Assembly: GCA_035471925.1 (NCBI GenBank) | Contig: DATIPO010000065.1 | Location: forward strand, 9,340-73,339 | Length of the DNA: 64,000 bases | Reading direction: 5' to 3' | Origin: Acidobacteriota bacterium | Lineage (GTDB): Bacteria > Acidobacteriota > UBA6911 > RPQK01 > DATIPO01 | Shown: one piece after another, positions 6,060-64,000 of the stretch | How the letters are laid out: each line of letters starts with the position of its first letter | How positions within the stretch are numbered: position 1 is the first letter of the stretch | Made by a program: the position numbers and the translations under genes | Notes under the pieces: model-generated | What the model was told of the DNA's origin: nothing | Seen by the model: the letters and a program-made list of their open reading frames with translations, nothing else | The model's database searches: none

Positions 6060-6124
6060 GTAAGTTGGTCCTCCAGTTGGCTCGAATGTATTTAAAAGTA
6101 CTGCGTTTTTCGTCTACGTTTAGT

Positions 6125-6153
6125 GAGATAAGATGCCAGGAGGCGGCTGTCAA
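6125..6153 (-). promoter_or_regulatory. Sigma70-like promoter of Hsp20 gene 2 (TTGACA-17-TATCTC)
   Basis: The minus-strand sequence gcctcacTTGACAgccgcctcctggcatctTATCTC shares the same extended -35 context as the first Hsp20 promoter. Confidence 0.4.
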
Positions 6154-6207
6154 GTGAGGCGGGCAAAAAAATCGCATTTCTGCCCCAAATAGCTGAAAAA
6201 TAGAGGT

Positions 6208-7281: not shown

Positions 7282-7304
7282 GAGCCTCCTTGCAAGAGGG
7301 CCGG

Positions 7305-10885: not shown

Positions 10886-11000
10886 GCCGCTGGCTGGCGA
10901 CCAAGTTCGCACGAGTCCTGTTTTGTGAATTTGGTCAGCGGCCTGGGATGCCCTTGGCCGCCGGCTATTCGGCGCCGACTTGTTGAAGACGACTTTTGCC

Positions 11001-11037
11001 GCCCGAGCAGCCCCCCGCGGCTTGCTCGGGTTTTTTG
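11001..11037 (+). terminator. Rho-independent terminator after rpsU
   Basis: cccgagca...tgctcggg hairpin followed by TTTTTTGTGTTT. Confidence 0.5.
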
Positions 11038-11060
11038 TGTTTGCAGCGGGGGCCGAGAGA

Positions 11061-27162: not shown

Positions 27163-27516
27163 ATGGCGAAGAAAGACGAGACGCTCAAGCCGCACTGGTT
27201 TCAGATCCTCCTGGCGCTGGGAGAGCGCGATCTTCACGGCTTGGGGATCATGCAGGACGTGCTGGAGCGCACCCAGGGCACGATGCACCTGTGGCCGGGG
27301 ATGCTGTACGGAGCACTCAAGGACCTGAGCGAACGGGGACTGATCGAAGAAGTCGAAGCGCCCAAGGACGCTGAGACAGGGGGCGGCAAGCCGCGTTTTT
27401 ACCAGTTGACCGAAGAGGGCCGGCGCCAAGCTTCGGCTGAGGCCCGCAAGCTGGAGTCCTACGTCGAGGCGGCCCGCTCGCGCAGACTGCTGGAACAGAA
27501 AGGGGAAGGCCGATGA
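27163..27516 (+). CDS. PadR-family transcriptional regulator
   Basis: HWFQILLALGERDLHGLGIMQDV...GMLYGALKDLSERGLIE; 4-nt overlap with the downstream permease. Confidence 0.85.
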   Translation: MAKKDETLKPHWFQILLALGERDLHGLGIMQDVLERTQGTMHLWPGMLYGALKDLSERGLIEEVEAPKDAETGGGKPRFYQLTEEGRRQASAEARKLESYVEAARSRRLLEQKGEGR

Positions 27517-32225: not shown

Positions 32226-34952
32226 TCATTCCGCACCCAAGGCCTGCACAGGATCGATGCGCGTGGCGCGGCGGGCTGGAGTGTAGCAGGGGAGCAGCGC
32301 CAGCAGGAAGACGATCAAGGCCACCGCAACCAGGGTCAAGGGATCGGCGGGGCTGACGCCGAAAAGCAGCGAGGCCAGAAAGCGCGAGAGGATCAAAGAG
32401 GTGGCCATCCCCGCAACCAGTCCCAGGGCCGCCAGGGCCAGTCCCTGGCGCAGGATGAGGGCCCGGATGTTGGAGGGGCGTCCCCCCAGGGCCATGCGCA
32501 CGCCGATTTCCCGCGTCCTCTGAGTGACGAAGGCGGAAATGACGCCGTAGATGCCCACCGCCGCCAACAGCAGTCCCAAAGCGGCGAAGGCCGCCAGAAG
32601 CAGCATGGGATAACGTTTGGGGGCCAGATTGGACTCCACCGCCCGCTCCAGCGGACGGAGATTGAAGACCGGCAACTGAGGATCGGCTGCCTTGACGGCG
32701 GAACGGATTTCCTGGGCCATGAATTGGGGTGAAAGCCCTCCCTCGGCCACCAAGACCATGGAGCGCGGTCCGCCCGTTTGCGCCAGCGGCACGAAGACCT
32801 GGTCGGCGGGTTCCTGTCCTACGGACCGGCTTTGCAGGCCTTCCACCACGCCCACGATTTCCCGCCAGGGTCCCTCCTCGGAAGGGCCCACGCGCTTGCC
32901 TACGGCATCCTCATCGGGCCAGTATCTTTGGGCCACTTGGCGATTGACGATGATGGTCGGCAAGCTGGACGAATCGTCCTGGCGGGTGAATAGGCGGCCC
33001 TGCAGCAGGCGGACATCCAGGGTGCGGAAAAATCCGGGCGAGACGGTCTTGACCTCGGCGCCCGGCTGTTTGCTTCCGGGAGTGGGCGGCTGATCTTCGA
33101 TGTAGAAGGTGGCGGTGCCTTGAATGGGATCGAGGGGAAGCCAGTCGATGAATCCCGCCGAGGTGATGCCGGGGCGTCCGCCCAGATCGTCGAGCACCTG
33201 CTGAAACAGGGCATGGCGCTGGGCGGGCTGGGCGTATTGGGCGGCGGGCAGCGAGATCTCGGCGCTCATGCGTTGTTCCACCGAGAAGCCCGGATCGACC
33301 TCAACCAAGTGAAGGAAGCTGCGCAGCAGGAGGCCGGCTCCGGTCAGCAGCACCACCGCCAGGGCCACCTCGCCCACCACCAGCAGGCGGCGCAAACCCA
33401 GTCCTCCAACCGCTCCGCCGCGTCCCGACTGGTGCAGGGCCGGCGAGAGTTCCCGGCCCAGGATCTTCCAGGCGGGCAGGATGCCGGTCGCCAGTCCCGC
33501 GGCCAGCGACAGGGCTAGAGCGGCCAACAGGGTGGGGGTGTTGAGTCCGCTGTTGTCGATAAGGGGAAAGCCCTCTGGCGCGGAGGTCAGCAGCAGCCGA
33601 AGCAGGGCTGCGGCCAAGAGGACGCCGGCGGCTCCACCCACCAGGCAGAGCAGTAACGATTCTCCCAGCAGTTGTCGCAGCAGCCGCAGCGGAGGCGCTC
33701 CGAAAGAGGCCCGCACCGCCACTTCGCGCATCCGCAAAGAGGACTGTGCCAGTTGCAAATTGGCCACGTTCACGCAGGCGATCAGGAGCAGGCATCCCAC
33801 AGCGGCCAGAAGCATCCACAGCGGGGCGCGGACGTTGGCGGTGTAGCGCTCGCGGAAGGGCACCAGTTGAGCGCTCCAGTCCACCCGGCGCAGGAAGTCG
33901 GCTCGGGAGGGCACGGTGGCGATGACGTTGGCGGCGATGGCGTCCATTTCGGCTTCAGCCTCCTCAAAGGAGACATCGGGCCTCAGGCGTCCCAGGACCC
34001 GCAGAAACTCGTTCCCGCGCTGGGAATCTTGCCGATGCGCCAGTGTGAAGGCGGCGGGACGATAGAGGTCGACTTGCGAGGAGGGAAGGTCGAACCCCTG
34101 AGGCATCACGCCCAGGACGGTGTAGGGACGGCCGTCCAGATGCAATGTCCTGCCCAGGGCCTCGGTTTGGCCCCCGAAACGGCGCTGCCAGAATCCATAG
34201 GACAGCACCGCCACGTCGTCCTGGCCCGGCTGGTCGTGGGACTCGTCGAAGAAGGTTCCCAGCAGCGGGTTCATGCCCAACACCTCGAAGTAGCTGGCCG
34301 TAACCCGGGCGGCCTTGACCCGGACGGGCTCGCCTTCGCCGGTCAGGTTGACGTCGCGCGTCCAGTAGGCGGCCAGGCTCTCCAACGTGCCGCTCGATTC
34401 CACCCGGTCGAAGTAGTCGGGCACCGAGTTGGCGGAAGGGTTGCCCTCGTACTCGTTGTGAATCCACACCAGGCGTTCAGCCTGGGGATAGGGCAGCGGA
34501 CGCAGCAGAATGCCGTAGAAGACGCTGAAGACCGTGGCGGTGCCTCCGATCCCCAGTGCCAGGGTCACGATGGTCAGCAGGGCGAAGGTGCGCCGGCGCG
34601 AGATCAGGCGCAGTCCGTAGCGGAAATCCTGGGTCCATCCTTGCAGAAAACGAGACATGTCACTTCCTCCGTCGAGTTTCCCGGGCGAGGCGGGAAGGCG
34701 CTTGAGCCCGGAAAGCGGTCTTTCGATCTTGTGCAGCCGCATGCCGAGATTGGAATCGTCCAGATGAGCCAACGCTTCACGCCGGGCCGCCTTGACCGTG
34801 AGTCCCCGTTGCCGCGACTCGCGGTAGACGTCCTCCAGATGATCCGAGAGTTCGGCTGAGATCTCAGCTCGGCGCGGACCGCTCAATCCGTCCAGGTGAG
34901 GTTCGATGAAAGGCTTCCAATCAGGCATCTTGAAATCCCGTGACTTGGTCAA
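32226..34952 (-). CDS. ABC-transporter permease, MacB-like duplicated FtsX (ADOP family)
   Basis: 908 aa (FRYGLRLISRRRTFALLTIVTLALGIGGTATVFS...). TTG start with a GGAGG RBS; overlaps the 3' end of the upstream PadR gene. Confidence 0.85.
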   Translation of the reverse strand: MTKSRDFKMPDWKPFIEPHLDGLSGPRRAEISAELSDHLEDVYRESRQRGLTVKAARREALAHLDDSNLGMRLHKIERPLSGLKRLPASPGKLDGGSDMSRFLQGWTQDFRYGLRLISRRRTFALLTIVTLALGIGGTATVFSVFYGILLRPLPYPQAERLVWIHNEYEGNPSANSVPDYFDRVESSGTLESLAAYWTRDVNLTGEGEPVRVKAARVTASYFEVLGMNPLLGTFFDESHDQPGQDDVAVLSYGFWQRRFGGQTEALGRTLHLDGRPYTVLGVMPQGFDLPSSQVDLYRPAAFTLAHRQDSQRGNEFLRVLGRLRPDVSFEEAEAEMDAIAANVIATVPSRADFLRRVDWSAQLVPFRERYTANVRAPLWMLLAAVGCLLLIACVNVANLQLAQSSLRMREVAVRASFGAPPLRLLRQLLGESLLLCLVGGAAGVLLAAALLRLLLTSAPEGFPLIDNSGLNTPTLLAALALSLAAGLATGILPAWKILGRELSPALHQSGRGGAVGGLGLRRLLVVGEVALAVVLLTGAGLLLRSFLHLVEVDPGFSVEQRMSAEISLPAAQYAQPAQRHALFQQVLDDLGGRPGITSAGFIDWLPLDPIQGTATFYIEDQPPTPGSKQPGAEVKTVSPGFFRTLDVRLLQGRLFTRQDDSSSLPTIIVNRQVAQRYWPDEDAVGKRVGPSEEGPWREIVGVVEGLQSRSVGQEPADQVFVPLAQTGGPRSMVLVAEGGLSPQFMAQEIRSAVKAADPQLPVFNLRPLERAVESNLAPKRYPMLLLAAFAALGLLLAAVGIYGVISAFVTQRTREIGVRMALGGRPSNIRALILRQGLALAALGLVAGMATSLILSRFLASLLFGVSPADPLTLVAVALIVFLLALLPCYTPARRATRIDPVQALGAE

Positions 34953-37376: not shown

Positions 37377-37537
37377 TCGCGTCCGGGGACCGTCCAAACC
37401 GGGCGGTCCCCTGGCAGATCGATGGTTCCTGTTATGCTGATCGGCGGTTCCGTTTTCAGACCTGTCTTCCGGCCGATTCGGAAGAAACGAGGCCGCTATG
37501 TTTGGTTTCGTCCAGACCCTTGGTTAAAATTCGGGCC

Positions 37538-38890
37538 ATGGACGAGGCGCTGACCGCTCACCGCTTCCACTTCGCCTTTACGGTGGCCTACCACTACATC
37601 TTTCCCCAACTGACCATGGGGCTTTCGCTGCTGATTCTGGTGCTCAAGACCATGCACCTCCGCGGCGACCAGGAGGCCGGCCGCGCGGCCCGTTTCTGGA
37701 TCAAGATCCTCGCCATCTCCTTCGTCATGGGGGTCGTCACCGGCATCCCCATGGAATTCCAGTTCGGCACCAACTGGAGCCGCTTTTCCCAGGCCGCCGG
37801 GGGCGTGATAGGACAGACGCTGGCCATGGAAGGCGTCTTCGCCTTTTTTCTGGAGTCGGCTTTTCTCTACGTGTTGGTCTTTCAGGAGAAGCGTCTCAGC
37901 GCCCGGGGCCATTGGACGGCCGCCTTGCTTGTTTTCATCGGCACTTGGCTAAGCGGGTTCTTCATCACCTGCACCAACGCCTGGATGCAGCATCCTGTGG
38001 GCTACCGGGTCACCTCTGGAGGCGTGATCGAACTGGAGAGCCTGACGGCCATGCTGACCAATCCCTGGGCTTTTGCCGAGTACAGCCATACCATGATCGG
38101 ATCGGTCATCACGGCCAGTTTCACCATGGCCTCCATCGGGGCTTTCTACCTGCTGCGCGGCCAGCATGAGAGGGTGGCTCGGCGCTTTGTCTCGGTGGCC
38201 GTTGTGGCGGGATTGATCGCCAGCATCACGGCCGCCTTTCCCACCGGGGACATCCAAGCCAAGATGGTCCACCGCCATCAGCCGGTCACTTTCGCGGCCA
38301 TGGAAGGTCACTTCAAGACCGAGGAGGGCGCCGGATTGGTCCTGGTGGGACAGCCCGACTTGGAGGAGATGGAACTCGACAACCCCATCGTCCTGCCCCG
38401 CATCCTGTCTTTTCTCACCCACGCCCGCTGGGACTCGGAGATCACAGGACTTACCGACTTTCCCCGCGAGGAGTGGCCCGACAACGTGGCCCTGCTTTAT
38501 TACGCCTATCACATCATGGCTGGACTGGGGACCATCTTCATCGCCACCATGCTGGCCGGCGCCTTCTTCTTGTGGCGCGGGACCCTGGCCCGCCAGCGAT
38601 GGTTGCTGTGGATCTTGCTGCTCTCCTTGCCCCTGCCCTTCATCGCCAACACCGCCGGCTGGATGACCGCCGAACTGGGACGCCAGCCCTGGCTCATCCA
38701 CGGGCTGATGCGCACCGCCGAGGGCTATTCCAGCCATGTCTCAGCGGGCAACGCCCTCTTTACCCTGCTGGGCTTCATGGGGCTTTACGTAATGCTTTCG
38801 GCGCTCTTCTTCTTCACTACCACCCGCATCATCGCCGCCGGACCGGACGAGGCGGTCGACGGAGCATCCCCAAGCGAGGTTGAAGACTGA
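37538..38890 (+). CDS. cydA: cytochrome bd ubiquinol oxidase subunit I
   Basis: MDEALTAHRFHFAFTVAYHYIFPQLTMGLS..., with the Q-loop and heme-ligating region present. Confidence 0.9.
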   Translation: MDEALTAHRFHFAFTVAYHYIFPQLTMGLSLLILVLKTMHLRGDQEAGRAARFWIKILAISFVMGVVTGIPMEFQFGTNWSRFSQAAGGVIGQTLAMEGVFAFFLESAFLYVLVFQEKRLSARGHWTAALLVFIGTWLSGFFITCTNAWMQHPVGYRVTSGGVIELESLTAMLTNPWAFAEYSHTMIGSVITASFTMASIGAFYLLRGQHERVARRFVSVAVVAGLIASITAAFPTGDIQAKMVHRHQPVTFAAMEGHFKTEEGAGLVLVGQPDLEEMELDNPIVLPRILSFLTHARWDSEITGLTDFPREEWPDNVALLYYAYHIMAGLGTIFIATMLAGAFFLWRGTLARQRWLLWILLLSLPLPFIANTAGWMTAELGRQPWLIHGLMRTAEGYSSHVSAGNALFTLLGFMGLYVMLSALFFFTTTRIIAAGPDEAVDGASPSEVED

Positions 38891-39963
38891 TGGAAACGCT
38901 CTGGTTCTGCCTGCTGGCCTGGATGCTGGCCACTTACGTGGTCCTCGACGGATTCGACCTGGGTGCCGGACTGCTGCACCCCTTCGTGGCCCGCACCGAG
39001 GCCGAGCGCCAACAGATCGTGCGCAGCTTGGGTCCCGTCTGGGACGGCAACGAAGTGTGGCTGCTGGCCGCCGGAGGAACCATGTTTCTGGCCTTCCCCA
39101 CCTTGCTGGGCACGGCCTTCAGCGGATTCTATCTGCCGCTCATGATTGTCCTCTGGCTGCTCATCTTCCGGGCGCTGGGCATCGAGCTTCGCCACCAACT
39201 CCACGACTCGATGTGGACGCAGTTCTGGGATTATGCCTTCGCCGTCTCCAGCTTCTTGCTGGCCGTGTGTTTCGGCGCCGCCTTGGGCAACGTGGTGCGG
39301 GGCGTGCCTTTGGGTCCCGACGGGACTTTCTTCGAGCCGCTTTGGACCGACTTCAGGGTGGGTGCCCGAACCGGCATTCTCGACTGGTACACCGTCCTCA
39401 TCGGACTCACCGCCGTCGCCGCCTTGGCTCAGCATGGCGCCTTGTGGCTGGCTTCCCGCACCGACGGGCCGGTGCAGGAGCGTTCTCGCCGGCTGGTTTC
39501 CCGGCTGTGGCCGCTGACCATCGTCTTGGCCCTGCTCACGACTATCGCCACCTTCTCCGTCCAGCCGTTGATCGTCCAAAGCCTCTCGGACCGTCCATGG
39601 GGAGTCGTCTTTGCCTTGTTGGCCGCCGGCGGACTGGCCGGCATCTACGCCTTCCGCCGCCGCGCCGTCGCCGAGTCGACCGAGGAGTCCAAGCGCCGCG
39701 CCAGTCTGCGCGCCTTTCTCTCTTCGGCGGCCTTCCTCTACGGGATGCTGGCGTTGGTAGGCGTGGGCCTCTACCCCTACCTTCTGCCCGCCCGCGATCC
39801 GGCGCTGGGACTCACCGCTCAAACCGCCGCAGCCGGAGGCGCCGGACTCACGACTGCCCTCTATTGGTGGATCCCGGGCATGATCTTGGCCGTAGGCTAT
39901 TTCACCTACCTCTACGGGTCGCTTCCCTCCTGCTTCTCCGTCCACGACCCCGGAGAACACTGA
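38890..39963 (+). CDS. cydB: cytochrome bd ubiquinol oxidase subunit II
   Basis: METLWFCLLAWMLATYVVLDGFDLGAGLL...; TGATG overlap with cydA. Confidence 0.9.
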   Translation: METLWFCLLAWMLATYVVLDGFDLGAGLLHPFVARTEAERQQIVRSLGPVWDGNEVWLLAAGGTMFLAFPTLLGTAFSGFYLPLMIVLWLLIFRALGIELRHQLHDSMWTQFWDYAFAVSSFLLAVCFGAALGNVVRGVPLGPDGTFFEPLWTDFRVGARTGILDWYTVLIGLTAVAALAQHGALWLASRTDGPVQERSRRLVSRLWPLTIVLALLTTIATFSVQPLIVQSLSDRPWGVVFALLAAGGLAGIYAFRRRAVAESTEESKRRASLRAFLSSAAFLYGMLALVGVGLYPYLLPARDPALGLTAQTAAAGGAGLTTALYWWIPGMILAVGYFTYLYGSLPSCFSVHDPGEH

Positions 39964-51403: not shown

Positions 51404-53737
51404 TTAGGTTTCTGAAGAGCCGGCGGCACAGTTGATGGTTTCTTCCAGTTTTTTGCCTTCGTAGAACCAAACGGACTCAGCTCCGCCATCGGTCTGCCTC
51501 AGGAGCTTGAGACGAAGGCAGGCCTCATCCCTCTCTCCCAACTCATGGTGCAGCAGCGCCTTCAGGTAAGTTATTTCTAAGAGCAGAAAAAAGCGGTCGC
51601 CGATGGTGCTTTCAATTCCTTTGAGGTCGGCCAGGGCGGACTCCAGCTCTCCTAGCTTCAGTTTTGCTCGGGCCAGGTTCTTTCGCATCCTCGGATCGCC
51701 GGGCTTTGCGGCCAGTCCGTTGACAAGAACCCGGCGGGCCTTCTTCCAATCACCGCGGTCCAGGTAGATGCGTCCCAACTCATTCCAGGCATCGGGAAAG
51801 GCGTAATCCTCGGCCGCGACTCGCAACTGCACGATGGCGTCCTCGATTTGATCTTGCTGAGGGTGGGCCAAGAGGATTCCGTAATTGAAGCGCAGGTGTC
51901 CGTCGCCGGGATCAATCTGAACCGCCTCCCGAGCATGTTCAACGGCGGAGGCGATCCTCCCGAGACCGCTTTCAGCCAATGCCAGATAGGAGTGGGCGGG
52001 CGCGAAACGCTCATCACTGTCAATGGCGTTTTGAAAGCAGCGGCGAGCCGCCGAGTAGTCGCGCTTCTGAAGGTGCTTGACTCCTTGCAGCGTCCATTCC
52101 CCCACGTCGGAGGCCACGGCTGTGCGGATCGACTCTTTCAGGACGGGACTGAGGCTCACCCCAGCCTTCTCCAGCAGCCATTCCGCGATCCGCGATTCCA
52201 ATGGAAAGGGGTCGGCTGGAAGGGTCTCGTCTTTGGGGCTGCTGCGGGTCGAATCCAGCAGTTGTTTCAGACCGACGAGTTCCTGGGTTCTGCATTTGCC
52301 ATCGACAACACCGAAATGGGAGGAGCTCACGTCGCCGTTGGAGGCCAGTTGCCTAAGCTGTACGAAACTCGATCCGCCCTCCTCCCAGGAGCCCCGGCCA
52401 TCGGGCCTACAGCCGGAATGGACAATCCTGAGCGGGGGACCAGCTTGGCGGGGCCAGTTGCGGGCCGCGGCCTGCAGCTTGGCCACCACTACTTCGTGTT
52501 GGGGACCGGCAAGCCCCTGCGAATCGTCGAAGGCCTCAACAAAGACCCGCAATTCTCCTTTCTGCGGTCCACTGCCGATCGTCAGCCAGCCCAGGACCAC
52601 GAGAATGACGAGGGCAGCCGCAGCATTGATTATCCGTCTCTTGTTCCACCAAACCGTTTGGCTGAAGAGTCGTTGCCCGCTGCGGGCCGCGTAGAGCACC
52701 GGCGTACCCCAAGCGGGACGGTTGGAGCCTGAGTACAAATCCCGCCAGCATTCTGCCAAGGCTTCGTCCACTGTGTGGCCCTGGCTCAGGGCGGCATAGA
52801 AGCGGACCGCGAAGCTGACGGCCAGGTCAGAACGGATGTCGAACTGCATGGCCACTACGTTGGGAATGCCCCGCCGCTCCAGCTCGGCGGCCATGGCCGG
52901 AAGGGAGGTCTCGAATTCAGCGCGGGCACCTTCGCAAGAGTTGAGAACCACCAGACGCAGGTCGGGCTGATCTTTCAGGAGGGTGGCAAAACGCCGGCTC
53001 AAGACCACGTCCCTGCCGCTGCTGTGCTCGTCCGCCTTGAAGAAGAGGCTGTCGGGACCTCCGTGGCGGATCAGGTGGAGGATATGGTAGGACTCGCCTT
53101 TAAGCTGCTGCTGGAGGGTGGTCATGCTGTCGGCATCGATCCTCAGAAGCTTGAGACGCCCGGCGCGGACTTCTGGTGCGAGCAGCTCTTGAAGTTGGTT
53201 CCACTCATTGTCGCCTCCCAGGTCCTCTTCACCGACTGGCACAACCACCGCCATGCGCACCGGTCCTTCGGGTGTGGGAGTCAGTTCCCCGGCCCTGCTG
53301 CCCAGCCGGCGCACCAGAGTGGCGGCTCCTCCGGGCAGCATGAATTCGCGTTCTTGGGGATCGAACAGATACTCCCAGGGCAATTCCGCCAATTTGGGTG
53401 CCTGGGTGAAGTCCAGCGTCAATCGCAGCTTCCGTCCTCGTCCTAGTGCCGCGCGGCAGCAGCGCAAGGCTGTCAGCATTTCGCCCTGGAAGAGGATCTC
53501 GAAAAGAATCTCGCCCACCTGTTCCATGGCCTTCATGCCATCGGCCGGAGATTCCGAGAGCCTGCCTTCTGCCCGTTGACGAATCAGGGCCAGTTCGTCA
53601 TCGTCGAAAGGCACCTTGAAGTCGACGACCGTGCCCACATTGCTGCTGGCTCGCACTAATTGGGCGCCATAGTGCGCTTCGCCAATGCGGCGAAACCACA
53701 CCTCGAAGGCCTCGAGACGAACTCCTGCTGACATCAC
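51404..53737 (-). CDS. CHAT-domain (caspase-like) peptidase: N-terminal cytoplasmic CHAT, single TM, periplasmic TPR region
   Basis: CHAT hallmarks PWEYLFD, His-Gly dyad YHILHLIRHGG and catalytic Cys VVLNSCEGA. TM helix IINAAAALVILVVLGWLTIG. C-terminal TPR repeats. Confidence 0.8.
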   Translation of the reverse strand: MMSAGVRLEAFEVWFRRIGEAHYGAQLVRASSNVGTVVDFKVPFDDDELALIRQRAEGRLSESPADGMKAMEQVGEILFEILFQGEMLTALRCCRAALGRGRKLRLTLDFTQAPKLAELPWEYLFDPQEREFMLPGGAATLVRRLGSRAGELTPTPEGPVRMAVVVPVGEEDLGGDNEWNQLQELLAPEVRAGRLKLLRIDADSMTTLQQQLKGESYHILHLIRHGGPDSLFFKADEHSSGRDVVLSRRFATLLKDQPDLRLVVLNSCEGARAEFETSLPAMAAELERRGIPNVVAMQFDIRSDLAVSFAVRFYAALSQGHTVDEALAECWRDLYSGSNRPAWGTPVLYAARSGQRLFSQTVWWNKRRIINAAAALVILVVLGWLTIGSGPQKGELRVFVEAFDDSQGLAGPQHEVVVAKLQAAARNWPRQAGPPLRIVHSGCRPDGRGSWEEGGSSFVQLRQLASNGDVSSSHFGVVDGKCRTQELVGLKQLLDSTRSSPKDETLPADPFPLESRIAEWLLEKAGVSLSPVLKESIRTAVASDVGEWTLQGVKHLQKRDYSAARRCFQNAIDSDERFAPAHSYLALAESGLGRIASAVEHAREAVQIDPGDGHLRFNYGILLAHPQQDQIEDAIVQLRVAAEDYAFPDAWNELGRIYLDRGDWKKARRVLVNGLAAKPGDPRMRKNLARAKLKLGELESALADLKGIESTIGDRFFLLLEITYLKALLHHELGERDEACLRLKLLRQTDGGAESVWFYEGKKLEETINCAAGSSET

Positions 53738-53882: not shown

Positions 53883-53964
53883 GTTTACTGGAGGTGTAAA
53901 CAGCGGACCAGGTAAACAGTTTCTGCTCCTGGGCATTGACATTTGGGGCGGAAGGGCCGTTTAC
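53883..53964 (+). promoter_or_regulatory. Operator/promoter region: GTTTAC-N7-GTAAAC inverted repeat, AAAC-N-GTTT, and a TTGACA-18-TTTACT promoter with a third GTTTAC half-site
   Basis: Perfect 6-bp inverted repeat at 53883..53901, a palindrome at ~53913..53921, and gtttac again in the -10 region. Lies between the divergent CHAT operon and the XRE-HTH ORF. Confidence 0.4.
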
Positions 53965-53986
53965 TTTGGTAGATCTTTTTACGACC

Positions 53987-54406
53987 ATGAGAATCCGGCT
54001 TCGGCATGATCGGCTGGCAGATGCAATCGCCAAGAGCCGGGCCAGCCAGAACGCCTGGGCGCGGCGGCTGGGACTCGGCAGAGGGCATCTGTCGCTGCTC
54101 GTTCGAGGCAAGCGTCCCTACCCGTCGAAGGTCACGCGGATCAAGCTGCTGAGCGGACTGGACCTGCCGTTTGGAGAGTTGTTCAAGGTTGAGCGCTCGG
54201 CTGGCGCTCGAAACACAAATTTCGGGGAGGATCCGCTCCCGGAAGCCAGGACCCACTCGTCGCTGAGGGCCGCCCCAGTGGACTCTCAGGGCAGGCGTCG
54301 GTCGAGGCGGGCTGCCAAGAGGCGGCGTTCGGCGACGGTCCCAGCCGGCAGCCTACATTCAAGAACGCTGTGGCCCGCCGGAAAAGGGGCCACGAGAAAG
54401 GAGGGT
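53987..54406 (+). CDS. XRE-family (Cro/C1-type) HTH domain ORF, in frame with no stop before the downstream permease
   Basis: MRIRLRHDRLADAIAKSRASQNAWARRLGLGRGHLSLLVRGKRPYPSKVTRIKLLSGLDLPFGELF is an HTH_XRE domain. It is followed by an Arg-rich low-complexity linker that reads through into the permease. Confidence 0.45.
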
Positions 54407-56830
54407 ATGTTGAGCAGTTTGAGAGGAGATCTGCGCTCTGCCTTTCGCCTGATGGCAGCCCACAAGGGCCTGATGGCGGTCATGGTCGTGGTGTTGGCCT
54501 TGGGCATCGGGCCCAATCTGGCCGTTTTCGCGGTCATGGACGCGGTCTTGCTCAAAAGCCTTCCTTATTCCCAACCCGACGCCTTGGCCGCCGTAGGACC
54601 TCCGCTGCTGGAGCTTTCGCCCGTCGAGCTGCTCGACTTGCGGCAACGAAGCCGGCTGGCCCGCTCCATAGCGGGATGGCAGCCGGTCGATTGGAGCCTC
54701 ACTCATCCTGGGGAACCAGCGGTCGTCCGGGGAGCGCGCGTAACCCCAAACCTCTTTGCCACATTGAAAGTCGAGACGGTCCTGGGTTCGGGCTTTGACG
54801 CCGAAGGGCCGGCGAGCGCAATGATTTCCGACCGCCTGTGGAGAAGCCGCTTTTCCGGCTTGGCCGATGTCCTGGGGCGCAGGCTGACAATCGAAGGACA
54901 ATCCTACCCGATCAGCGGCGTCATGCCTCCCGGATTCGCCTTGCCCGACGACATCGAAAGCGGTCAAAGGTCGGACGTTTGGCTGCCCATCGACATGCGC
55001 GCCGTGAGTCCGCGCAGCCGCGGCTTTAAAGACCTGCTGGTGGTGGCCCGTTTGAAAGAAGGCGTCTCCATGGCCTCCTTTCAGGCCGAAATCACAGCCA
55101 TCGCCCAGGACCTGCAGCGCGAGTTTCCTGATTGGTATCCGTCCGACAAGGCCTTCCAGATCCCGATCCTGCGGCTGCATGAGAAAACCCTGGGCCGGAC
55201 GCGTCCCGCCCTGCGCCTGCTCCTTGGCGGCGTGGGGCTGGTGTTGCTGATCGCCTGCGTCAATGCGGCCAACCTGTTGTTGATCCAGGCCCGGCGCAGT
55301 TACTCCGGATTGGCGCTGCGGCGGATCCTGGGTGCCAGCCGGGTGCGCCTGATGCGTCCGCTGGTCCTGCAAAGCCTGGCGGTGGCGCTGCTGGCAGGAG
55401 TCCTGGGCATGGCGATGGCCGAGGGGATGCTGGGCCTGATGCGGTTACTGGCTCCTGAAGGGGTTCCCCGCTTCGAAGCCATCCAAGTCAGCACGCGGGT
55501 CTTCGCTTTTGGCTTCCTCCTCTCGATGGCTGTAGGGCTGGTATTCGGCGTTTTGCCTGCTCTCAGGGTCTCAGGCTGGTTCAAGGGCGCGATGCCCCTG
55601 GCGGGACGGGGAACGCGGGGCATCCTGGGCGGCTTGCGGCTGCACCGCCAGGCCATTCTGGCCGAAAGCGCGCTGGCCATGATTCTGCTGGTGGGCGGCG
55701 GACTCATGGCCAAGAGCTTCTGGCTGCTGACCCGCGTCGAGGCGGGATTCGAATCGCGAGACACGCTGACCTTCGAGATCGCTTTGCCCAAGTCGCGCTA
55801 TCCCGAATCCCACCGGGTTTCGTCCTTTTTCAATGCTCTGGTGCAGCGGCTGGAAGGGCTTCCGGGCGTGATCTCGGGAGCGGCGGTGCGCAAGCTGCCG
55901 CTGCAGCACTCGGTGGGACGCTGGGAGAGCAGCGTCGCCGGCTCTCCCAAGGGCGACGAGAAGATACTGCCCCAATACCAAGTCATTACGCCGGGGTATT
56001 TCAAGACCCTGGGAATCCGTCTGGCTGAGGGACGCGACTTCAGGCCCACCGACGATGCCGAGGCTTCTGCTGTACTGATCGTCAACCGCTCGCTGGCAGC
56101 GGAGGCATGGCCGGGAGTCAGCGCCCTGGGTAAGCAGCTCAAGATGAGCGGCTCCAGCGAGTCTCCCTGGCTGCGTGTCGTGGGAGTGGTTGAGGACGTC
56201 CGCCATGCAGGCTTAGACGTCCCCGCCGGCCCGCGCATGTACCTGCCCCACAGTCAGTACCCCTCGTCATCGGTGATTGGAGGTCCGGTACGCCGCATGA
56301 CAGTGGTGCTGCGGGTCAAGGGGGCAGCGGACGACCTGGCCGGGCCGGTCAAGCAAGAGGTTCGGCGGCTGGATCCCGGCCTGCCCCTGCAGAGCGTCCG
56401 CAGCATGGACGAGGTCGTGAGCCGGTCGATTTCGCGTCCTCGCTTCCTTACCTCGCTGCTGGCCGCCTTCGGAACGACCGGACTGTTGCTGGCAGCTCTG
56501 GGGGTGTACAGCGTGGTCCTGCTCTCGACAACGCTGCGGCGTCACGAATTCGGAGTGAGGATGGCCGTGGGTGCCCGTCCCTGGGACGTCCTCAGGCTGA
56601 ACGCCGGGCAGGGGCTGCTTCTGACCCTGGCCGGGGCGGGCATCGGACTGCTCGGGGCATTGGCCTTGACCCGCCTTCTCTCAGGATTCCTCTTCGGCGT
56701 CTCTCCCCTCGACTGGAGCGTGATGACCGCCTGCTTCGCGCTGCTGACCGCCATCGGACTGGCCGCATCGGCCATTCCCGCCCTCCACTCAGCCCGCATC
56801 GACCCGATCTCTGTCCTGCGAAGCGAATAG
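54407..56830 (+). CDS. ABC-transporter permease, MacB-like duplicated FtsX (ADOP family)
   Basis: Internal ATG with RBS gagaaaggaggg. MLSSLRGDLRSAFRLMAAHKGLMAVMVVVLALGIGPNLAVFAV... is the typical permease N-terminus; two FtsX modules. Confidence 0.85.
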   Translation: MLSSLRGDLRSAFRLMAAHKGLMAVMVVVLALGIGPNLAVFAVMDAVLLKSLPYSQPDALAAVGPPLLELSPVELLDLRQRSRLARSIAGWQPVDWSLTHPGEPAVVRGARVTPNLFATLKVETVLGSGFDAEGPASAMISDRLWRSRFSGLADVLGRRLTIEGQSYPISGVMPPGFALPDDIESGQRSDVWLPIDMRAVSPRSRGFKDLLVVARLKEGVSMASFQAEITAIAQDLQREFPDWYPSDKAFQIPILRLHEKTLGRTRPALRLLLGGVGLVLLIACVNAANLLLIQARRSYSGLALRRILGASRVRLMRPLVLQSLAVALLAGVLGMAMAEGMLGLMRLLAPEGVPRFEAIQVSTRVFAFGFLLSMAVGLVFGVLPALRVSGWFKGAMPLAGRGTRGILGGLRLHRQAILAESALAMILLVGGGLMAKSFWLLTRVEAGFESRDTLTFEIALPKSRYPESHRVSSFFNALVQRLEGLPGVISGAAVRKLPLQHSVGRWESSVAGSPKGDEKILPQYQVITPGYFKTLGIRLAEGRDFRPTDDAEASAVLIVNRSLAAEAWPGVSALGKQLKMSGSSESPWLRVVGVVEDVRHAGLDVPAGPRMYLPHSQYPSSSVIGGPVRRMTVVLRVKGAADDLAGPVKQEVRRLDPGLPLQSVRSMDEVVSRSISRPRFLTSLLAAFGTTGLLLAALGVYSVVLLSTTLRRHEFGVRMAVGARPWDVLRLNAGQGLLLTLAGAGIGLLGALALTRLLSGFLFGVSPLDWSVMTACFALLTAIGLAASAIPALHSARIDPISVLRSE

Positions 56831-59137: not shown

Positions 59138-61506
59138 TTAGCCTGTTGCCGGACGCCAGCTTCGAGAGGAACCCGTAGTGAGACGGTTGTGCCGGCGCCG
59201 GCTTGTCCGGCAATTTCGACTTGGCCGCCCAGCAGTAGTGCCCGTTCGCGCATTCCCAGAATTCCGAAGGTATGAGTTCCACCGCTTTGCCCGGCCTCGA
59301 TGCCCTTTCCGTTATCGCGCACGTTCAGCACCAGATTTCCCCCGGCCTCTCCAAGCTTGACCTCGACTTGGGTGGCCTCGGCGTGCCGGGCGACGTTGGT
59401 TAAAGCTTCCTGGAAGATTCGGAAGACGGCGGTGGCGCGGGCCTGATCGAGTTCGATCTCATGAGCGCTGCAATCCAGTTGGCAATCGATCTTGGTGCGC
59501 TCCTGGAACTCCTGGGCCTGCCATTCCACGGCGGCCGCCAACCCCAAGTCGTCGAGGACCGCCGGCCTCAAAGCCGTCAGGATGCCGCGTACAGAGCGGA
59601 TGGTCTCGTCCACCAGATTCGTCATGCCGCGCGTGTGGGCGGAAAGAGCCTCTTGATCCTCGGCCAGCTCTTCTTCCATCCAGGACAAGTCGAGCTTGAG
59701 AGCCGTCAAGGCTTGACCCAGTTCGTCGTGGATCTCCCGGGCAATCTGCTTTCGTTCTTCTTCGCGGGCTGAAACCAGGTGACGGGAGAGGCGCCGCAGC
59801 TCCTCGTGCGAAGTCCGCAGCTCGGCTTCGGCTTTCCTGCGTTCGGTGATGTCGCGCTGCTGGGCTACCAGGTAAAGGGGCTGGCCATCGCGGTCGCGGA
59901 CCACCGAGGCGGCCACATAGGCCCAGCGCACGTGGCCCTCCTTATGGATGTAGCGTTTCTCCAGGCGGAAGGAATCGAATTCGCCCTCCAGGGCCCGCTG
60001 AGTCTGGTCGCGCCCGATGTCGAGGTCATCGGGATGGGTCACGTCTTGAAAGCTCTTGCGGGTGAGTTCTTCAGCGCTGTATCCCAGCATGTCGCAGAGG
60101 GCGCGGTTGACTCTTTGGAATCTGAATTCCGGCGTCACCACCGACATTCCGATGGTGGCGTGCTCGAAGGCGCTGCGGAAGCGGGCCTCGCTCTCGCGCA
60201 GCTTGGCTTCCACTCTGCGGCGTTCTTCGACCTGCTCTTTGAGGGCTTGGTTGGCTTTGGAGAGCTGGGCTGTCCTCTTCTCGACGCGGGCTTCCAGCAG
60301 TTCGTAGGATTCCTTGAGTTCGGCTTCGGCCCGCTTGCGCTGGCCCTCCAGCGCGGCTTCACGCTCCATCCGCCGGTAGTTGTCGAAGAGCAGCCCCAGT
60401 GCGTTGGTGAGAACGGCGATCTTTCGCTGGTCTCCGCTTTGATACCCGCCGGGACGGTTGGCCACGCCGATCATTCCCACCACGTCGCCGCCCTTGACGG
60501 CCGGCACGCCCAGGAAGCTGTTGAGCGGCGGATGCCCGGCCGGCACTCCGGTCGCTTTGGGGTGCTTGGCGGGGGCGTTGGACAGGACCACCTCACCGTG
60601 GGTGGCGACCCGGCCGGCCAAGTTATCCATCTTTGCGAAAGGAATGTAGCCCCGCTTCTTGAGTTCCCGGTGGGCCGAGTCGTAGATGTCGCGATTGACC
60701 ACCTTGTCCCATTTGAAGCCCTTGTGGTCCAGGATGCGCAGGTCCGGACCCTTCGCAACGACCGCCACAAAGCCGTATTCGCTTTGGGTTTGACGCAGTG
60801 CCTCATCCAGGATCGACCCGACGGCTTGGCGCAGGTCGCCCGTTTCAAGGTAGCCCATCATGGCGTCGGTGATGGACTGCAGTTGGGCGGTCTTCTCCTC
60901 CAGCGCCTTTTCGGTCCGCTTGAGCTCGGAGATGTCCTGGATCTGGGCCAGGCAGCGGAGAGGCTTGTCGTCGGCGTCCCGCACCAAGGTTGCGCTCAAC
61001 AAGGCCCACACGGCGTGACCGTCTTTGTGCAGGTAGCGTTTTTCCTGGCGGAAGCTGTCGATTTCACCGGCCAGCATGCGCTTGACGAGCTTGCGTCCCG
61101 GAGCGATGTCGTCAGGGTGAGTGATGTCGGCAAAGGTCTTGCCCAGGAGTTCTTCTTCGCAGTAGCCGAGCATCTTGCAGAAGGAGGGATTGACCCGAAT
61201 CAGGTGGCTGTCCAGGCTCATCACGGCTCGGCCCATCACCGTCAGCATGAAGTCGCTGGGTGAGGTTTCCTCCGATACCGGAACCTGGGGCGTCGCTTTG
61301 CTCATCGTCCTCAAGTATAGAACGGGGCCTGCCGCCATGCTTGTCGGAGACTTGCCCTTTCTCGTGTGGTCGATTGTCCTACACAGGGCGTTGGGAGATG
61401 CGGAAAAGCAGTCGCGCGGAGCCTCGAGAGGCCCTTTGAGCTCCGTGCGGGCGGCAATCTGGGCTAATCGCGCCTTTTTGCTGTTTAGTCCGATTTCTGA
61501 CCACAA
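59134..61506 (-). CDS. PAS/GAF multi-sensor histidine kinase (HisKA_3 plus HATPase), partner of the NarL-type regulator
   Basis: Two PAS domains and a GAF domain. HisKA_3 H-box REIHDELGQALTALKLDLSWM and a C-terminal ATPase domain. The true start is probably internal (ATG at 61338 or 61305). 4-nt overlap with the regulator gene. Confidence 0.85.
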   Translation of the reverse strand: MWSEIGLNSKKARLAQIAARTELKGPLEAPRDCFSASPNALCRTIDHTRKGKSPTSMAAGPVLYLRTMSKATPQVPVSEETSPSDFMLTVMGRAVMSLDSHLIRVNPSFCKMLGYCEEELLGKTFADITHPDDIAPGRKLVKRMLAGEIDSFRQEKRYLHKDGHAVWALLSATLVRDADDKPLRCLAQIQDISELKRTEKALEEKTAQLQSITDAMMGYLETGDLRQAVGSILDEALRQTQSEYGFVAVVAKGPDLRILDHKGFKWDKVVNRDIYDSAHRELKKRGYIPFAKMDNLAGRVATHGEVVLSNAPAKHPKATGVPAGHPPLNSFLGVPAVKGGDVVGMIGVANRPGGYQSGDQRKIAVLTNALGLLFDNYRRMEREAALEGQRKRAEAELKESYELLEARVEKRTAQLSKANQALKEQVEERRRVEAKLRESEARFRSAFEHATIGMSVVTPEFRFQRVNRALCDMLGYSAEELTRKSFQDVTHPDDLDIGRDQTQRALEGEFDSFRLEKRYIHKEGHVRWAYVAASVVRDRDGQPLYLVAQQRDITERRKAEAELRTSHEELRRLSRHLVSAREEERKQIAREIHDELGQALTALKLDLSWMEEELAEDQEALSAHTRGMTNLVDETIRSVRGILTALRPAVLDDLGLAAAVEWQAQEFQERTKIDCQLDCSAHEIELDQARATAVFRIFQEALTNVARHAEATQVEVKLGEAGGNLVLNVRDNGKGIEAGQSGGTHTFGILGMRERALLLGGQVEIAGQAGAGTTVSLRVPLEAGVRQQAK

Positions 61507-61636
61507 GTCTCAGTCCGCGAAACGCTCATCTATCTGCCGAGTCCAAGGGGGCGTCCGATGCCGAAAGCGCAGCGGATGGCTGACAGGAACGGGGCGCTCC
61601 AAGTGGAGTTGCCCCTCCAAACCAAGGAGATGAACG

Positions 61637-62251
61637 ATGAAACTGTATAGCAAGTACCGAAACCAAACCCTCCTCCTCTTTGTCCTGATCTTGGGCTTCT
61701 CGGTGGCGGGCCTTTTGACCGCGGCGGCGGGACCCGCCTTTCAGGAAAAGCTGGTCTTCAACGGCGACAACGAACTGCAGCGCCCCGATTTCAGCTTTCG
61801 CAACTGGCGTTACATCGGAACGCCGGTGACGCCCAACGACCTGAATTCTGGAAAGGCCCCGTTTCCGGAATTCCACAACGTTTACATCCATCCTGATGAC
61901 TACGACTACTACGCCCGCACCGGCAAGTTCCGCGACGGGACAGCCCTCATCAAGGAGCTGGTGAGCGTCAGCTCCAAGCAGGCGCCCAGCGGCAACGGCT
62001 ACTTCATGGGCGATTTCATCGGCCTCGAGGTGGCGGTCAAGGACTCCAGGCGTTTTCCCGATGAGCCCGGATACTGGGCCTACTTCAGTTACGGCCACAG
62101 TTATCCCCTGAAGGAGAAGGCGGCCGCCCAACCCACGGATACCTGCAATGCCTGCCACCAGGCCAATGCGGCCGACGATTGGGTGTTCAGCCAATACTAT
62201 CCGGTCCTGCGGGCCGCCAAGACCGTCCCGATGGGCGGCGGAAGCCAGTAA
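61637..62251 (+). CDS. cytochrome P460 / cytochrome c'-beta family protein (periplasmic)
   Basis: Signal peptide, RBS aaggag, C-terminal heme-binding CNACH and FRNWRYIG...YYARTGKFRDGTALIKE conservation. Paralogous to the next gene. Confidence 0.7.
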   Translation: MKLYSKYRNQTLLLFVLILGFSVAGLLTAAAGPAFQEKLVFNGDNELQRPDFSFRNWRYIGTPVTPNDLNSGKAPFPEFHNVYIHPDDYDYYARTGKFRDGTALIKELVSVSSKQAPSGNGYFMGDFIGLEVAVKDSRRFPDEPGYWAYFSYGHSYPLKEKAAAQPTDTCNACHQANAADDWVFSQYYPVLRAAKTVPMGGGSQ

Positions 62252-62291
62252 ACCCTGAAGTTGGCTCCAATCCGAGGCTAAGGAGAAGCTC

Positions 62292-63446
62292 GTGATGAAC
62301 AGAATGGTCCTATTAGCATTCATATTGACTCTGGGCGCGGGGGCCGTTCTCTCCGGCCTGCAGGTTGAACCCTTCTCGCCCTGGGCCGACGCCCAGGGCA
62401 ATATCCGCCTTCCTGAGGAATTTCGGACCACCTGGTCACATTTGGGTGACTGGGTGGTCCCCGAGGAGGGCGGACTGTCCTTCCACGAAGTCTATGCCTC
62501 ACCCGAGACGGTGGACTACTACAAGCGGCACCGGCAGTTCCCGGACGGTGCCGTCCTGGTCAAGGAGGTTCGCAGCAGCAGCTCGGCCCAGATGACCACC
62601 GGGCGGGCCTCCTGGGCGTCCGACAACCAGATCTGGTTTGTGATGATCAAGGACGCCCACAACCGCTTCCCCGACAATCCGCTGTGGGGGGACGGATGGG
62701 GCTGGGCCCTGTTCGCGGCCGAGGATCCTCAGGTCAACGTGACCAAAGACTACCGCCAGGAGTGCCTCCCTTGCCACTTGCCCGCCAAAGAGCATGACTG
62801 GGTTTACGTGGAGGGCTATCCAACCCTCAAGCCCGCCCCTGCGGCTGCAGGCATGAACGCGTCTCACGCGGGCGGCATGGGTTCCGGGGCGATGAGTACC
62901 TCCCATGCGGGCTCTGCCGGCGGGACCGGGGCGATGAGTGTCCCCCAGGAGGGAGAGGCGAACGAGTCGGATATGAGCGCTTCCCACGCGGGCGATCATG
63001 GGGCCGGGCCGCCAAGTGTCTCCCAGGAGCGAGAAGCCGGTGCGCCGGATATGAGCGTTGGCCAGCCGGGTCCTGCCGAAGCGGCTGGGTCGATAAGTGC
63101 GTCTCAGGAGGGCAACTCTGACGCTCCGGGGCCAAGGAACAGGCTGCCTTCCAATGCGGGTCCCCGCAAGGAGTCCGCTGCCAGCGACGACGTGCCCGAG
63201 AACAGCGTCAGGATGAACATGTTGGCCTATAGTCCCCAGACCTTGACGGTGAAGGTCGGGACCACAGTGACCTGGATCAACGAGGATCCTTTCCCCCACA
63301 CGGCCACGGCCGACGACGGCAGTTTCGACACGGGGACCATCGCGTCCAAACAGAGAGCTTCCGTCACATTCAACGACCCCGGAACCTTCCCTTACACCTG
63401 CACCCCGCACCCCTTCATGAAGGGAACCATCAAGGTCGTCGAATAA
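62292..63446 (+). CDS. cytochrome P460-like domain fused through a Met/His-rich linker to an amicyanin-like type-1 copper (cupredoxin) domain
   Basis: Signal peptide, CLPCH heme motif, repeats MSxSHAG, and a C-terminal TWINEDPFPHT...YTCTPHPFMKGTIKVVE (His...Cys-x2-His-x2-Met blue-copper ligand set). Confidence 0.7.
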   Translation: MMNRMVLLAFILTLGAGAVLSGLQVEPFSPWADAQGNIRLPEEFRTTWSHLGDWVVPEEGGLSFHEVYASPETVDYYKRHRQFPDGAVLVKEVRSSSSAQMTTGRASWASDNQIWFVMIKDAHNRFPDNPLWGDGWGWALFAAEDPQVNVTKDYRQECLPCHLPAKEHDWVYVEGYPTLKPAPAAAGMNASHAGGMGSGAMSTSHAGSAGGTGAMSVPQEGEANESDMSASHAGDHGAGPPSVSQEREAGAPDMSVGQPGPAEAAGSISASQEGNSDAPGPRNRLPSNAGPRKESAASDDVPENSVRMNMLAYSPQTLTVKVGTTVTWINEDPFPHTATADDGSFDTGTIASKQRASVTFNDPGTFPYTCTPHPFMKGTIKVVE

Positions 63447-63449
63447 CCG

Positions 63450-63915
63450 GCGAGCAGGCGGACACATCAGGGCCCGTCAGATCCTCGCCGCGGGCAACGA
63501 GGATGCCAGCCCAGCAGGCGGACACATCAATACCCATCAAGGACTCGTGTAGGCAACCAGCACGCCAGCCCAGCCGACGCGCGCACCGGTGTCAAGTCAA
63601 GTCCGGGTTCGCTGCAGGCGGGCAGTGTGCCAGCAATAGGGCGCATCAGTGCCAAGTCAAGTCCGGGCTCGCTGCAGGCGGGCAGTGTGCCAGCAATAGG
63701 GCGCATCAGTGCCAAGTCAAGTCCGGGCTCGCTGCAGGGCGGGCAGTGCGCCAGCAGAAGGGCGCATCAGTGCCAAGTCAAGTCCGGGCTCGCTGTAGGT
63801 GAGCCATATGCCAGCCCAGGGTCAGCCGCCGTCGAGCGCAGCGAGACTAAGGCGCCACCCTGGGTTCGAGCGGCGACATGCCCTAACGCTGTAAGCGTGC
63901 AATAGCGTCATCCAG
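63450..63915 (+). repeat. Structured intergenic repeat element, copy 3: ~5 tandem ~60-bp units plus the conserved terminal module
   Basis: Units ...cagtgccaagtcaagtccgggctcgctgcaggcgggcagtgtgccagcaatagggcgcat occur about 3.5 times. The terminal gctcgctgtaggtgagccatatgccagcccagggtcagcc...accctggg...taacgctgtaagcgtgcaatagcgt matches copies 1 and 2. Confidence 0.6.
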
Positions 63916-63943
63916 TGAGCGAAAACTGTTTCGCTTGCTCGCT

Positions 63944-64000
63944 TTATCCAAACAGCGTCGTGGCGATGTTGATGATGAGCAGCAGCGAGAAGCTGCCGTA
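63944..64000 (-). CDS. C-terminal end of a minus-strand (membrane?) protein gene running off the window
   Basis: Reverse-complement translation ...YGSFSLLLIINIATTLFG-stop; too short to classify. Confidence 0.35.
   Translation of the reverse strand, partial: YGSFSLLLIINIATTLFG

Follow-up and report, generated by a model that had tools for sequence, protein, structure and literature searches.

Few enzymes are known to make the greenhouse gas nitrous oxide (N2O) directly from hydroxylamine (NH2OH), and cytochrome P460 is among them. For each N2O formed, its catalysis uses up four oxidising equivalents from an outside oxidant, a part played in vitro by an artificial dye; the natural electron acceptor has never been established. 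Here we analyse two adjacent genes, ORF1 and ORF2 (open reading frames 1 and 2), in a 64,000-nucleotide stretch of an Acidobacteriota contig (DATIPO010000065.1, positions 9,340 to 73,339; hereafter the window). Both encode P460-family proteins, and ORF2 continues through a linker into a type-1 copper domain (cupredoxin). The balance of the evidence tips slightly towards a periplasmic module of a conserved kind that oxidises NH2OH and nitric oxide (NO) and has a built-in one-electron acceptor.

Among the closest described systems is the P460 of the ammonia oxidiser Nitrosomonas europaea (CytL; 2JE2/2JE3/8GAR), in which Lys70 is cross-linked to the haem. The distal proton-relay carboxylate, Glu96 in this protein and Asp102 in Methylococcus capsulatus P460, is needed for NH2OH oxidation (PMC11928373), and NH2OH oxidase activity requires both the cross-link Lys and the distal Glu (PMC11928373, PMC6427953). 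The single Glu96 position separates the N. europaea enzyme from an inactive haem protein, the P460 of Nitrosomonas sp. AL212 (6AMG), which has Ala there and does not act on NH2OH (PMC11928373). The latter is a "halfway-house" P460; the functions of such proteins, with their non-polar pockets, were called unresolved in a 2025 superfamily review. Where P460s have the cross-link Lys, cytochromes c'-beta have Phe or some other hydrophobic residue. The c'-beta of M. capsulatus accepts electrons from NH2OH-reduced P460 (PMC6427953). Two copper proteins are also relevant. Amicyanin (Paracoccus, 1AAC) is a free protein that serves as acceptor of methylamine dehydrogenase. Nmar_1354 (MCO4, 9CCK) of Nitrosopumilus maritimus oxidises NH2OH and ends in a type-1 copper domain that hangs from the enzyme by an unstructured linker (PMC11761707).

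A-type and B-type P460s as a gene pair

Judged from sequence, ORF1 is the one of the pair with the catalytic signature, Lys plus Glu. It scored 96.2 bits against the Pfam family Cytochrome_P460 (PF16694; cutoff 27), matched structures of N. europaea P460 with E 5e-54 (8gar) and E 1.7e-53 (2je2), and is about 55% identical to that protein in a multiple alignment. The fold family and the CxxCH haem motif are shared, and the alignment places in ORF1 both the Lys that marks P460 proper and the distal carboxylate of active P460s. The differences lie in the host, an Acidobacteriota metagenome-assembled genome (MAG) rather than an ammonia oxidiser, and at the position of Arg44, which is His in ORF1 as in the AL212 protein.

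The haem domain of ORF2 belongs to a second subfamily, here called B-type, ORF1-like P460s being A-type. It scored 91.6 bits against the same Pfam model (cutoff 27). In Foldseek it matched P460 structures of Nitrosomonas (E 1e-7), with a target-normalised TM-score of 0.67 to the P460s of Nitrosomonas sp. AL212 and N. europaea. In alignment with N. europaea P460, CLPCH falls on the haem motif and K91 on the cross-link Lys; this sets the CxxCH in a haem context, as had been predicted, and by the sequence criterion of the Lys the domain sides with P460 proper rather than with cytochrome c'-beta. Fold, Lys and CxxCH are thus those of the N. europaea enzyme, but ORF2 is only about 26% identical to it, has a shorter distal loop, carries Phe for Glu96, and adds a linker and a copper domain. 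The AL212 protein likewise keeps the Lys without a distal carboxylate, although by sequence it groups with ORF1 and the A-type (E 8e-52); B-type proteins, by contrast, form a subfamily without a solved structure, marked by an invariant Phe and the motif GDGWGWALF. M. capsulatus also has two P460-fold proteins, of which one is catalytic and the other has a pocket of non-polar residues. Its proteins are only weakly similar to ORF2 (E 1e-5 to 1e-6), and its c'-beta has Phe in place of the cross-link Lys, whereas B-type proteins keep the Lys and carry or adjoin an electron-carrier module.

Because Phe always stands where active P460s hold the proton-relay carboxylate, the pair probably does not contain a second N. 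europaea-like hydroxylamine oxidase in the form of the ORF2 haem domain. The original prediction had described a P460-type haem enzyme handling hydroxylamine or NO; this description fits ORF1, which keeps Lys and Glu, and is not to be taken for granted for the haem domain of ORF2, where Phe replaces the carboxylate.

To put figures on the pairing we fetched 80 metagenomic loci with the B motif and used tblastn to assign each of their P460 genes to a type. An A-type gene lay directly 5' of B on the same strand in 33 loci and directly 3' of it, again on the same strand, in 14, so that A adjoins B in 47 of the 60 informative loci (78%), which come from several phyla. B stood alone in 13 loci with at least 800 nt on both sides and in a further 5 with at least 800 nt upstream and a downstream flank too short; in 15 the flanks were too short to judge. 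The two types also differ by strict residue signatures. All B-type sequences had the Lys (80/80), Phe at the Glu96 position (80/80) and CxxCH (80/80), and the neighbouring A-type proteins had the Lys in 46/46, a carboxylate in 46/46 (Glu in 29, Asp in 17) and CxxCH in 45/46. The order A then B recurs in a Vicinamibacteria MAG (L004/L005), where A lies directly 5' of a B that carries a cupredoxin, in a Schlesneria MAG (L091), in L089/L090, and in three unrelated contigs (L086, L087 and L088) in which B has a cytochrome c domain or nothing appended. In one protein of 394 amino acids (P0011, from an ENA contig of 3147 bp) a B-type domain is followed by an A-type domain with Lys and Glu in a single chain, a candidate "Rosetta stone" link between the subfamilies.

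ORF1 and ORF2 are therefore a conserved two-gene module and not a local duplication. The two genes had been called tandem paralogues, and this part of the prediction has to be replaced: ORF1 and the ORF2 haem domain are 29% identical in a pairwise alignment and represent two old subfamilies that travel together. A recent tandem duplication was ruled out by this identity and by the distinctness of the conserved subfamilies. We also considered that ORF1 and ORF2 are independent enzymes with unrelated substrates, whose adjacency reflects shared export, haem maturation or regulation. Their low identity, the solitary B genes in 13 of the 60 informative loci and a 3-Mb Acidobacteriota contig (L001) with a fusion (P0004) and no A-type gene all speak for this. 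Same-strand adjacency in most informative loci across several phyla, the existence of the single-chain P0011 and the complementary invariant signatures, with the carboxylate only in A and the Phe only in B, speak against it, and we regard independence as rather improbable.

Several features of these loci stand apart from this question. Six loci (L134, L138, L143, L152, L153 and L165) hold three P460 genes in a row, in the order B-A-A. Asp in place of Glu at the proton relay was found in 17 of the 19 lower-scoring A-type copies, a set to which those of the B-A-A loci belong; these copies may be a third subfamily. In the Vicinamibacteria locus L004, a homologue of the haem chaperone CcmE (134 aa, 10920-11324) follows the fusion gene, and a protein with a PF14376 haem-binding domain (7270-7713) lies about 1.6 kb 5' of the A-type gene.

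The cupredoxin and other electron carriers appended to B

In the AlphaFold2 model of ORF2 two stretches fold into confident domains (predicted local distance difference test, pLDDT, above 90), one of them spanning about residues 30-175 and the other about residues 300-383. The second takes the cupredoxin fold that had been predicted for it. Residues 304-382 scored 50.3 bits against Copper-bind (PF00127; cutoff 21.2) and matched Cupredoxin_1 as well, so that the proposed family assignments, PF16694 for both proteins and PF00127 for the C terminus of ORF2, all exceed their cutoffs. The segments TWINEDPFPHT and YTCTPHPFMKG align to TWINREAMPHN and YHCTPHPFMRG of amicyanin, which supplies all four His/Cys/His/Met ligands, maps them onto the predicted domain and gives the amicyanin loop C-T-P-H-P-F-M together with the His of W-I-N-x-x-x-x-P-H. 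Foldseek matched amicyanin (E 3e-9, 36-39% identity) and 9cck (root-mean-square deviation 1.0 A), as well as plastocyanin and pseudoazurin; in sequence searches the C-terminal cupredoxin of 9cck came first (E 7e-16), ahead of amicyanin (E 1.5e-13). Against the amicyanin equivalog TIGR02657 the domain scored 61.1 bits, far below the cutoff of 110.2. The fusion to an amicyanin-like type-1 copper domain is thus supported by family, ligands and loop, and the domain is best described as amicyanin-like, not as an amicyanin. It differs from amicyanin in being the C-terminus of a haem protein, and no methylamine dehydrogenase family was matched among the subset of window ORFs that were scanned against Pfam.

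Nmar_1354 is the best match of the cupredoxin in both sequence and structure (40% identity). Its catalytic part is, however, a two-domain multicopper oxidase using O2 rather than a haem P460, and its linker has 15 amino acids against about 120 in ORF2.

The same in-frame P460-cupredoxin architecture occurs in nine further protein clusters, and the Lys, the CxxCH and the His/Cys/His/Met copper ligands are invariant in an alignment of the 10 fusions. A frameshift or assembly artefact behind the fusion was ruled out, since ten independent clusters share the in-frame architecture. The fusion is nonetheless rare. It was found in 3 of 185,579 species-representative genomes, all Acidobacteriota, and a profile search of 1.84 billion cluster representatives recovered P460 plus cupredoxin only in P0001, P0008, P0177 (a fragment) and P0170. 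In the searchable literature we found no description of a P460-cupredoxin fusion, a P460-cytochrome c fusion or the A/B pair, and the terms "fusion", "fused", "copper" and "redox partner" are all absent from the 2025 superfamily review. What is already known is the component families and the protein itself, deposited in GenBank under a generic name; the fusion and the A/B pairing are undescribed in the literature found.

A third Acidobacteriota MAG (L008) holds a P460-cupredoxin pseudogene (7696-8378), in which a deletion of about 65 codons has taken out GDGWGWALF and CxxCH along with the rest. A DDE transposase (5792-7129) adjoins the pseudogene, and about 3 kb 3' of it lies an A-type P460 that continues into a further C-terminal domain, itself bearing another CxxCH (11482-12249). 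Many close relatives of the cupredoxin domain are strung together, 3-12 in tandem, within giant chains of up to 3670 aa; these proteins (P0121-P0169 and others; loci L009-L085) come mostly from Thermoleophilaceae, Gemmatimonadota and Longimicrobiales MAGs.

The linker had been described as a Met/His-rich stretch of Cu(I)-binding type, which is overstated. Residues 181-300 are dominated by Ala (24), Gly (20), Ser (19) and Pro (12), with 6 Met and 4 His located in three MxxSHAG motifs; a GMGSGAM stretch is also present. Residues 202-297 have pLDDT below 50 in the AlphaFold2 model and are predicted to be disordered. Relative to its nearest relative (P0002, 77-78% identical in multiple alignments), ORF2 has a 104-aa insertion in the linker, which is missing from all nine other fusions, with their linkers of about 25-35 aa, and is lineage-specific. 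A conserved Met/His Cu(I) site in the linker is not supported, given this composition, the disorder and the missing insertion. Tandem Repeats Finder detected no tandem repeats in the linker DNA, the sole array lying downstream of the gene.

These features bear on a further alternative, in which the MxxSHAG motifs, together with the cupredoxin, serve to bind copper in the periplasm or to move it, and the link to P460 is secondary. Besides the three motifs and the GMGSGAM stretch, it draws on gene context. In L001 (3021-8957) an operon of OEP, CusB-like (with HMBD) and RND genes and a 231-aa protein without family match lies directly upstream of the P0004 fusion, and in L092 a YHS-domain protein follows B; the CusCBA-like efflux operon and the YHS-domain protein hint at a copper-related context. 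Copper handling is hard to reconcile, however, with a linker that holds so few Met and His, is predicted to be disordered and is missing from nine related fusions, with a complete and invariant His/Cys/His/Met site of the electron-transfer and not the chaperone type, and with the finding that in most relatives the appended module is a cytochrome c, unrelated to copper. We consider it quite improbable.

The module appended to B is in fact swappable: nothing, a cytochrome c, or rarely a cupredoxin. The top 120 homologues of ORF2 included 10 clusters that have a cupredoxin with the amicyanin loop and 19 with cytochrome c domains, which occupy the same position after B as the cupredoxin; most others were single-domain. 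In P0170, B is followed, behind a longer Ser/Thr/Pro-rich linker, by a plastocyanin-like cupredoxin; since its type differs (C-x2-H-x4-M), P0170 is an independent P460-cupredoxin fusion. The arrangement in L093 is a split form of the fusion, with a single-domain B (522-1085, 187 aa) and, 24 nt on, a separate secreted 118-aa cupredoxin (1110-1466) with the ligand loop C-T-I-H-P-Y-M (C-x2-H-x2-M). The fusion had been put forward as direct genetic evidence for a copper protein as the redox partner of P460. As a reasonable inference this stands, backed by the cytochrome c at the same position in relatives and by the split gene in L093.

The P0170 cluster (L089/L090) contains, besides its A gene, a NosD-like protein, a fusion of truncated globin and cupredoxin, a CcsA-like haem-maturation protein and a Crp/Fnr regulator. 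The globin fusion (421 aa; truncated globin PF01152 plus Copper-bind) lies directly 3' of the A and B-cupredoxin pair (L089 7164-8429; L090 5930-7195). In L089 the CcsA-like gene and the divergent Crp/Fnr regulator come after it, and the NosD-like beta-helix protein is upstream. This second haem-cupredoxin fusion hints at NO chemistry and fits an NO-related context.

Direction of electron flow in the proposed module

Since P460 needs an external oxidant and a c'-beta protein can take up its electrons, we propose ORF1 as catalyst and ORF2 as acceptor. Like the N. europaea enzyme, ORF1 would turn hydroxylamine into NO and N2O. The haem of ORF2 would work with ORF1 as a hetero-partner or in the next step, relaying electrons and/or binding NO, and the type-1 copper on the long flexible tether of B would be the built-in one-electron acceptor. 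From the haem or haems, the copper would pass the electrons of NH2OH/NO oxidation to a periplasmic carrier or terminal oxidase; in other bacteria a cytochrome c at the C-terminus of B, or a cupredoxin encoded by a gene of its own beside B, might take this role. In this scheme we infer the substrate, the direction of the electrons, physical contact between A and B, and a role in detoxification, not energy conservation, in a non-nitrifier. A broader version, which we hold tentatively and at somewhat less than an even chance, is that A and B form a widespread two-component, possibly heterodimeric, haem system, A being the oxidase and B an obligate, Lys-cross-linked and Phe-capped partner. The haem of B would relay electrons or trap NO, and B would bear or recruit an exchangeable one-electron module, either a cytochrome c or a cupredoxin of amicyanin-like or plastocyanin-like type.

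Electrons might instead run the other way. The tethered cupredoxin would then donate to the B haem, in the manner of copper nitrite reductases that carry a fused cupredoxin or cytochrome c; the substrate reduced at this haem would be peroxide or a nitrogen oxide (NO, for instance, giving N2O), and ORF1 would act independently. Copper nitrite reductases with extra C-terminal domains are indeed among the best structural matches to the cupredoxin (6hbe, and 9cck by its depositors' label), the B pocket is non-polar like those of the gas-binding cytochromes c'-beta and the inactive AL212 P460, and peroxidase-like activity has been reported for an Arg-capped cytochrome c'-beta. What makes this reductive direction unlikely is that B strictly keeps the cross-link Lys, the hallmark of the oxidative P460 cofactor, and that its partner A, present in 78% of informative loci, is an NH2OH oxidase with its catalytic residues complete. 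The potentials point the same way. Those of type-1 copper, about +250 to +300 mV, lie far higher than the values reported for the Fe(III)/Fe(II) couple of P460 and c'-beta, that of M. capsulatus c'-beta being -205 mV.

Other observations weigh against the oxidative module proposed here, in addition to the solitary B genes, the L001 fusion without an A-type gene and the copper-related contexts described above. AlphaFold2 did not dock the cupredoxin onto the haem domain with confidence, either in ORF2 (predicted template modelling score, pTM, 0.56) or in the short-linker relative P0002 (0.61), and haem-to-copper transfer is therefore without structural support; a flexible tether with non-confident docking is also compatible with a swinging-arm carrier, by analogy with Nmar_1354. 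The best PDB match of the ORF2 haem domain reaches only E 7e-12, with about 26% identity to any solved P460, and F116 stands where NH2OH-oxidising P460s have the distal carboxylate. Finally, no genes for ammonia monooxygenase, hydroxylamine oxidoreductase (HAO), nir or nor were found among the Pfam-scanned ORFs of the 64-kb window.

The P460-cupredoxin fusion, the parallel cytochrome c fusions and the split-gene version name a candidate electron partner for P460, and the question can be tested with a single recombinant protein. The conserved pairing suggests that a family studied singly works as a two-protein unit in many bacteria, and the presence of the module in Acidobacteriota and other non-nitrifiers bears on who processes hydroxylamine and NO in soils. 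Should the A/B two-component system hold true, the physiological way out for the electrons of cytochrome P460, long missing, would be found. The "halfway-house" P460s, whose pockets are non-polar, would gain a function, and enzymatic conversion of NH2OH to N2O/NO would reach into non-nitrifying soil phyla such as Acidobacteriota.

Locus layout and neighbouring genes

Both genes lie on the plus strand (Table 1), two adjacent secreted P460-family proteins as had been predicted, and each has an AAGGAG site 6-8 nt ahead of its start. ORF1 has 204 amino acids. We read ORF2 from GTG 62292 (384 aa), whereas the NCBI call begins at ATG 62295 (383 aa); the protein is 100% identical to P0001, "cytochrome P460 family protein" of an Acidobacteriota MAG in GenBank, encoded on a 76-kb contig. 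The gap of only 40 nt suggests that ORF1 and ORF2 are co-transcribed, and no terminator-like site was found in it. Promoter, terminator and Rfam scans of 61300-64000 found nothing.

Table 1. Positions in the window of ORF1, ORF2 and their sequence features
Feature	Position	Strand	Basis
ORF1 ribosome-binding site AAGGAG	61624..61629	+	sequence read; 7 nt 5' of ATG at 61637
ORF1, A-type cytochrome P460, N. europaea-like, with N-terminal hydrophobic export signal	61637..62251	+	Pfam, PDB matches, alignment
ORF1 Lys106, equivalent to haem cross-link Lys70 of N. europaea P460	61952..61954	+	alignment
ORF1 Glu131, equivalent to proton-relay Glu96 of N. europaea P460	62027..62029	+	GLEVAVKD aligned to GLEASVKD
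ORF1 haem-binding motif CNACH	62144..62158	+	aligned to N. europaea P460 CAACH
ORF2 ribosome-binding site AAGGAG	62279..62284	+	read from intergenic sequence
ORF2, B-type P460 domain, disordered linker and cupredoxin, 384 aa	62292..63446	+	Pfam, AlphaFold2, identity with P0001
B-type P460 domain, residues 41-172	62412..62807	+	Pfam 91.6 bits
ORF2 Lys91, aligned with the cross-link Lys	62562..62564	+	alignment to N. europaea P460
ORF2 Phe116, at the position of catalytic Glu96	62637..62639	+	pairwise alignment
Subfamily motif GDGWGWALF in the B-type domain	62688-62714	+	sequence
ORF2 haem-binding motif CLPCH	62763..62777	+	aligned to N. europaea P460 haem motif
Linker, residues 181-300, low-complexity, Ala/Gly/Ser/Pro-rich	62832..63191	+	composition, pLDDT
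Three MxxSHAG motifs in the linker	62853-62873, 62892-62912, 62973-62993	+	sequence
C-terminal cupredoxin	63192..63443	+	PF00127, amicyanin match, Foldseek
Type-1 copper ligand His336	63297-63299	+	aligned to amicyanin ligand
Type-1 copper ligands Cys370/His373/Met376 in CTPHPFM	63399-63419	+	aligned to amicyanin ligands

Pfam confirmed the annotations originally given to the neighbouring genes, a PAS-GAF-PAS HisKA_3 kinase, a NarL-type regulator, an ECF sigma factor and a Crp/Fnr protein. The suggestion that they form an N-oxide-responsive control layer was not borne out by comparison with other loci. The GAF kinase beside the Vicinamibacteria copy has no significant similarity to the window kinase (best E 0.04), which ruled out orthology of kinase and regulator with that locus, and the Crp proteins of the two loci are 26% identical, in the cNMP domain only. 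Regulators at other loci (L086-L088) are AraC, LysR or others. When B loci were compared by tblastn with cupredoxin-only controls, neither Crp nor ECF sigma nor response-regulator genes were clearly enriched around them, in a search of low sensitivity that missed the Crp gene annotated by Pfam in L089. The one regulator that recurs is of the Crp/Fnr type, present in 4 of some 10 contexts with annotation (the window, L005, L089/L090 and L091), which is suggestive of a possible link between this gene and the module.

Elsewhere in the window, a tandem array of about six 60-bp units (63453-63815) begins 7 nt past the ORF2 stop and nearly reaches the window end. Its central copies are 83-100% identical and its outer copies decayed; inverted repeats, an Rfam match and a terminator-like site were all sought in it and none was found. 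The window also holds cydAB (37502-39963), a CHAT-TPR protein (51404-53737) and three duplicated permeases of the MacB_PCD/FtsX type, 908-964 aa long (27513-30314, 32226-34952 and 53936-56830). Long permeases of this duplicated type are common in Acidobacteria genomes.

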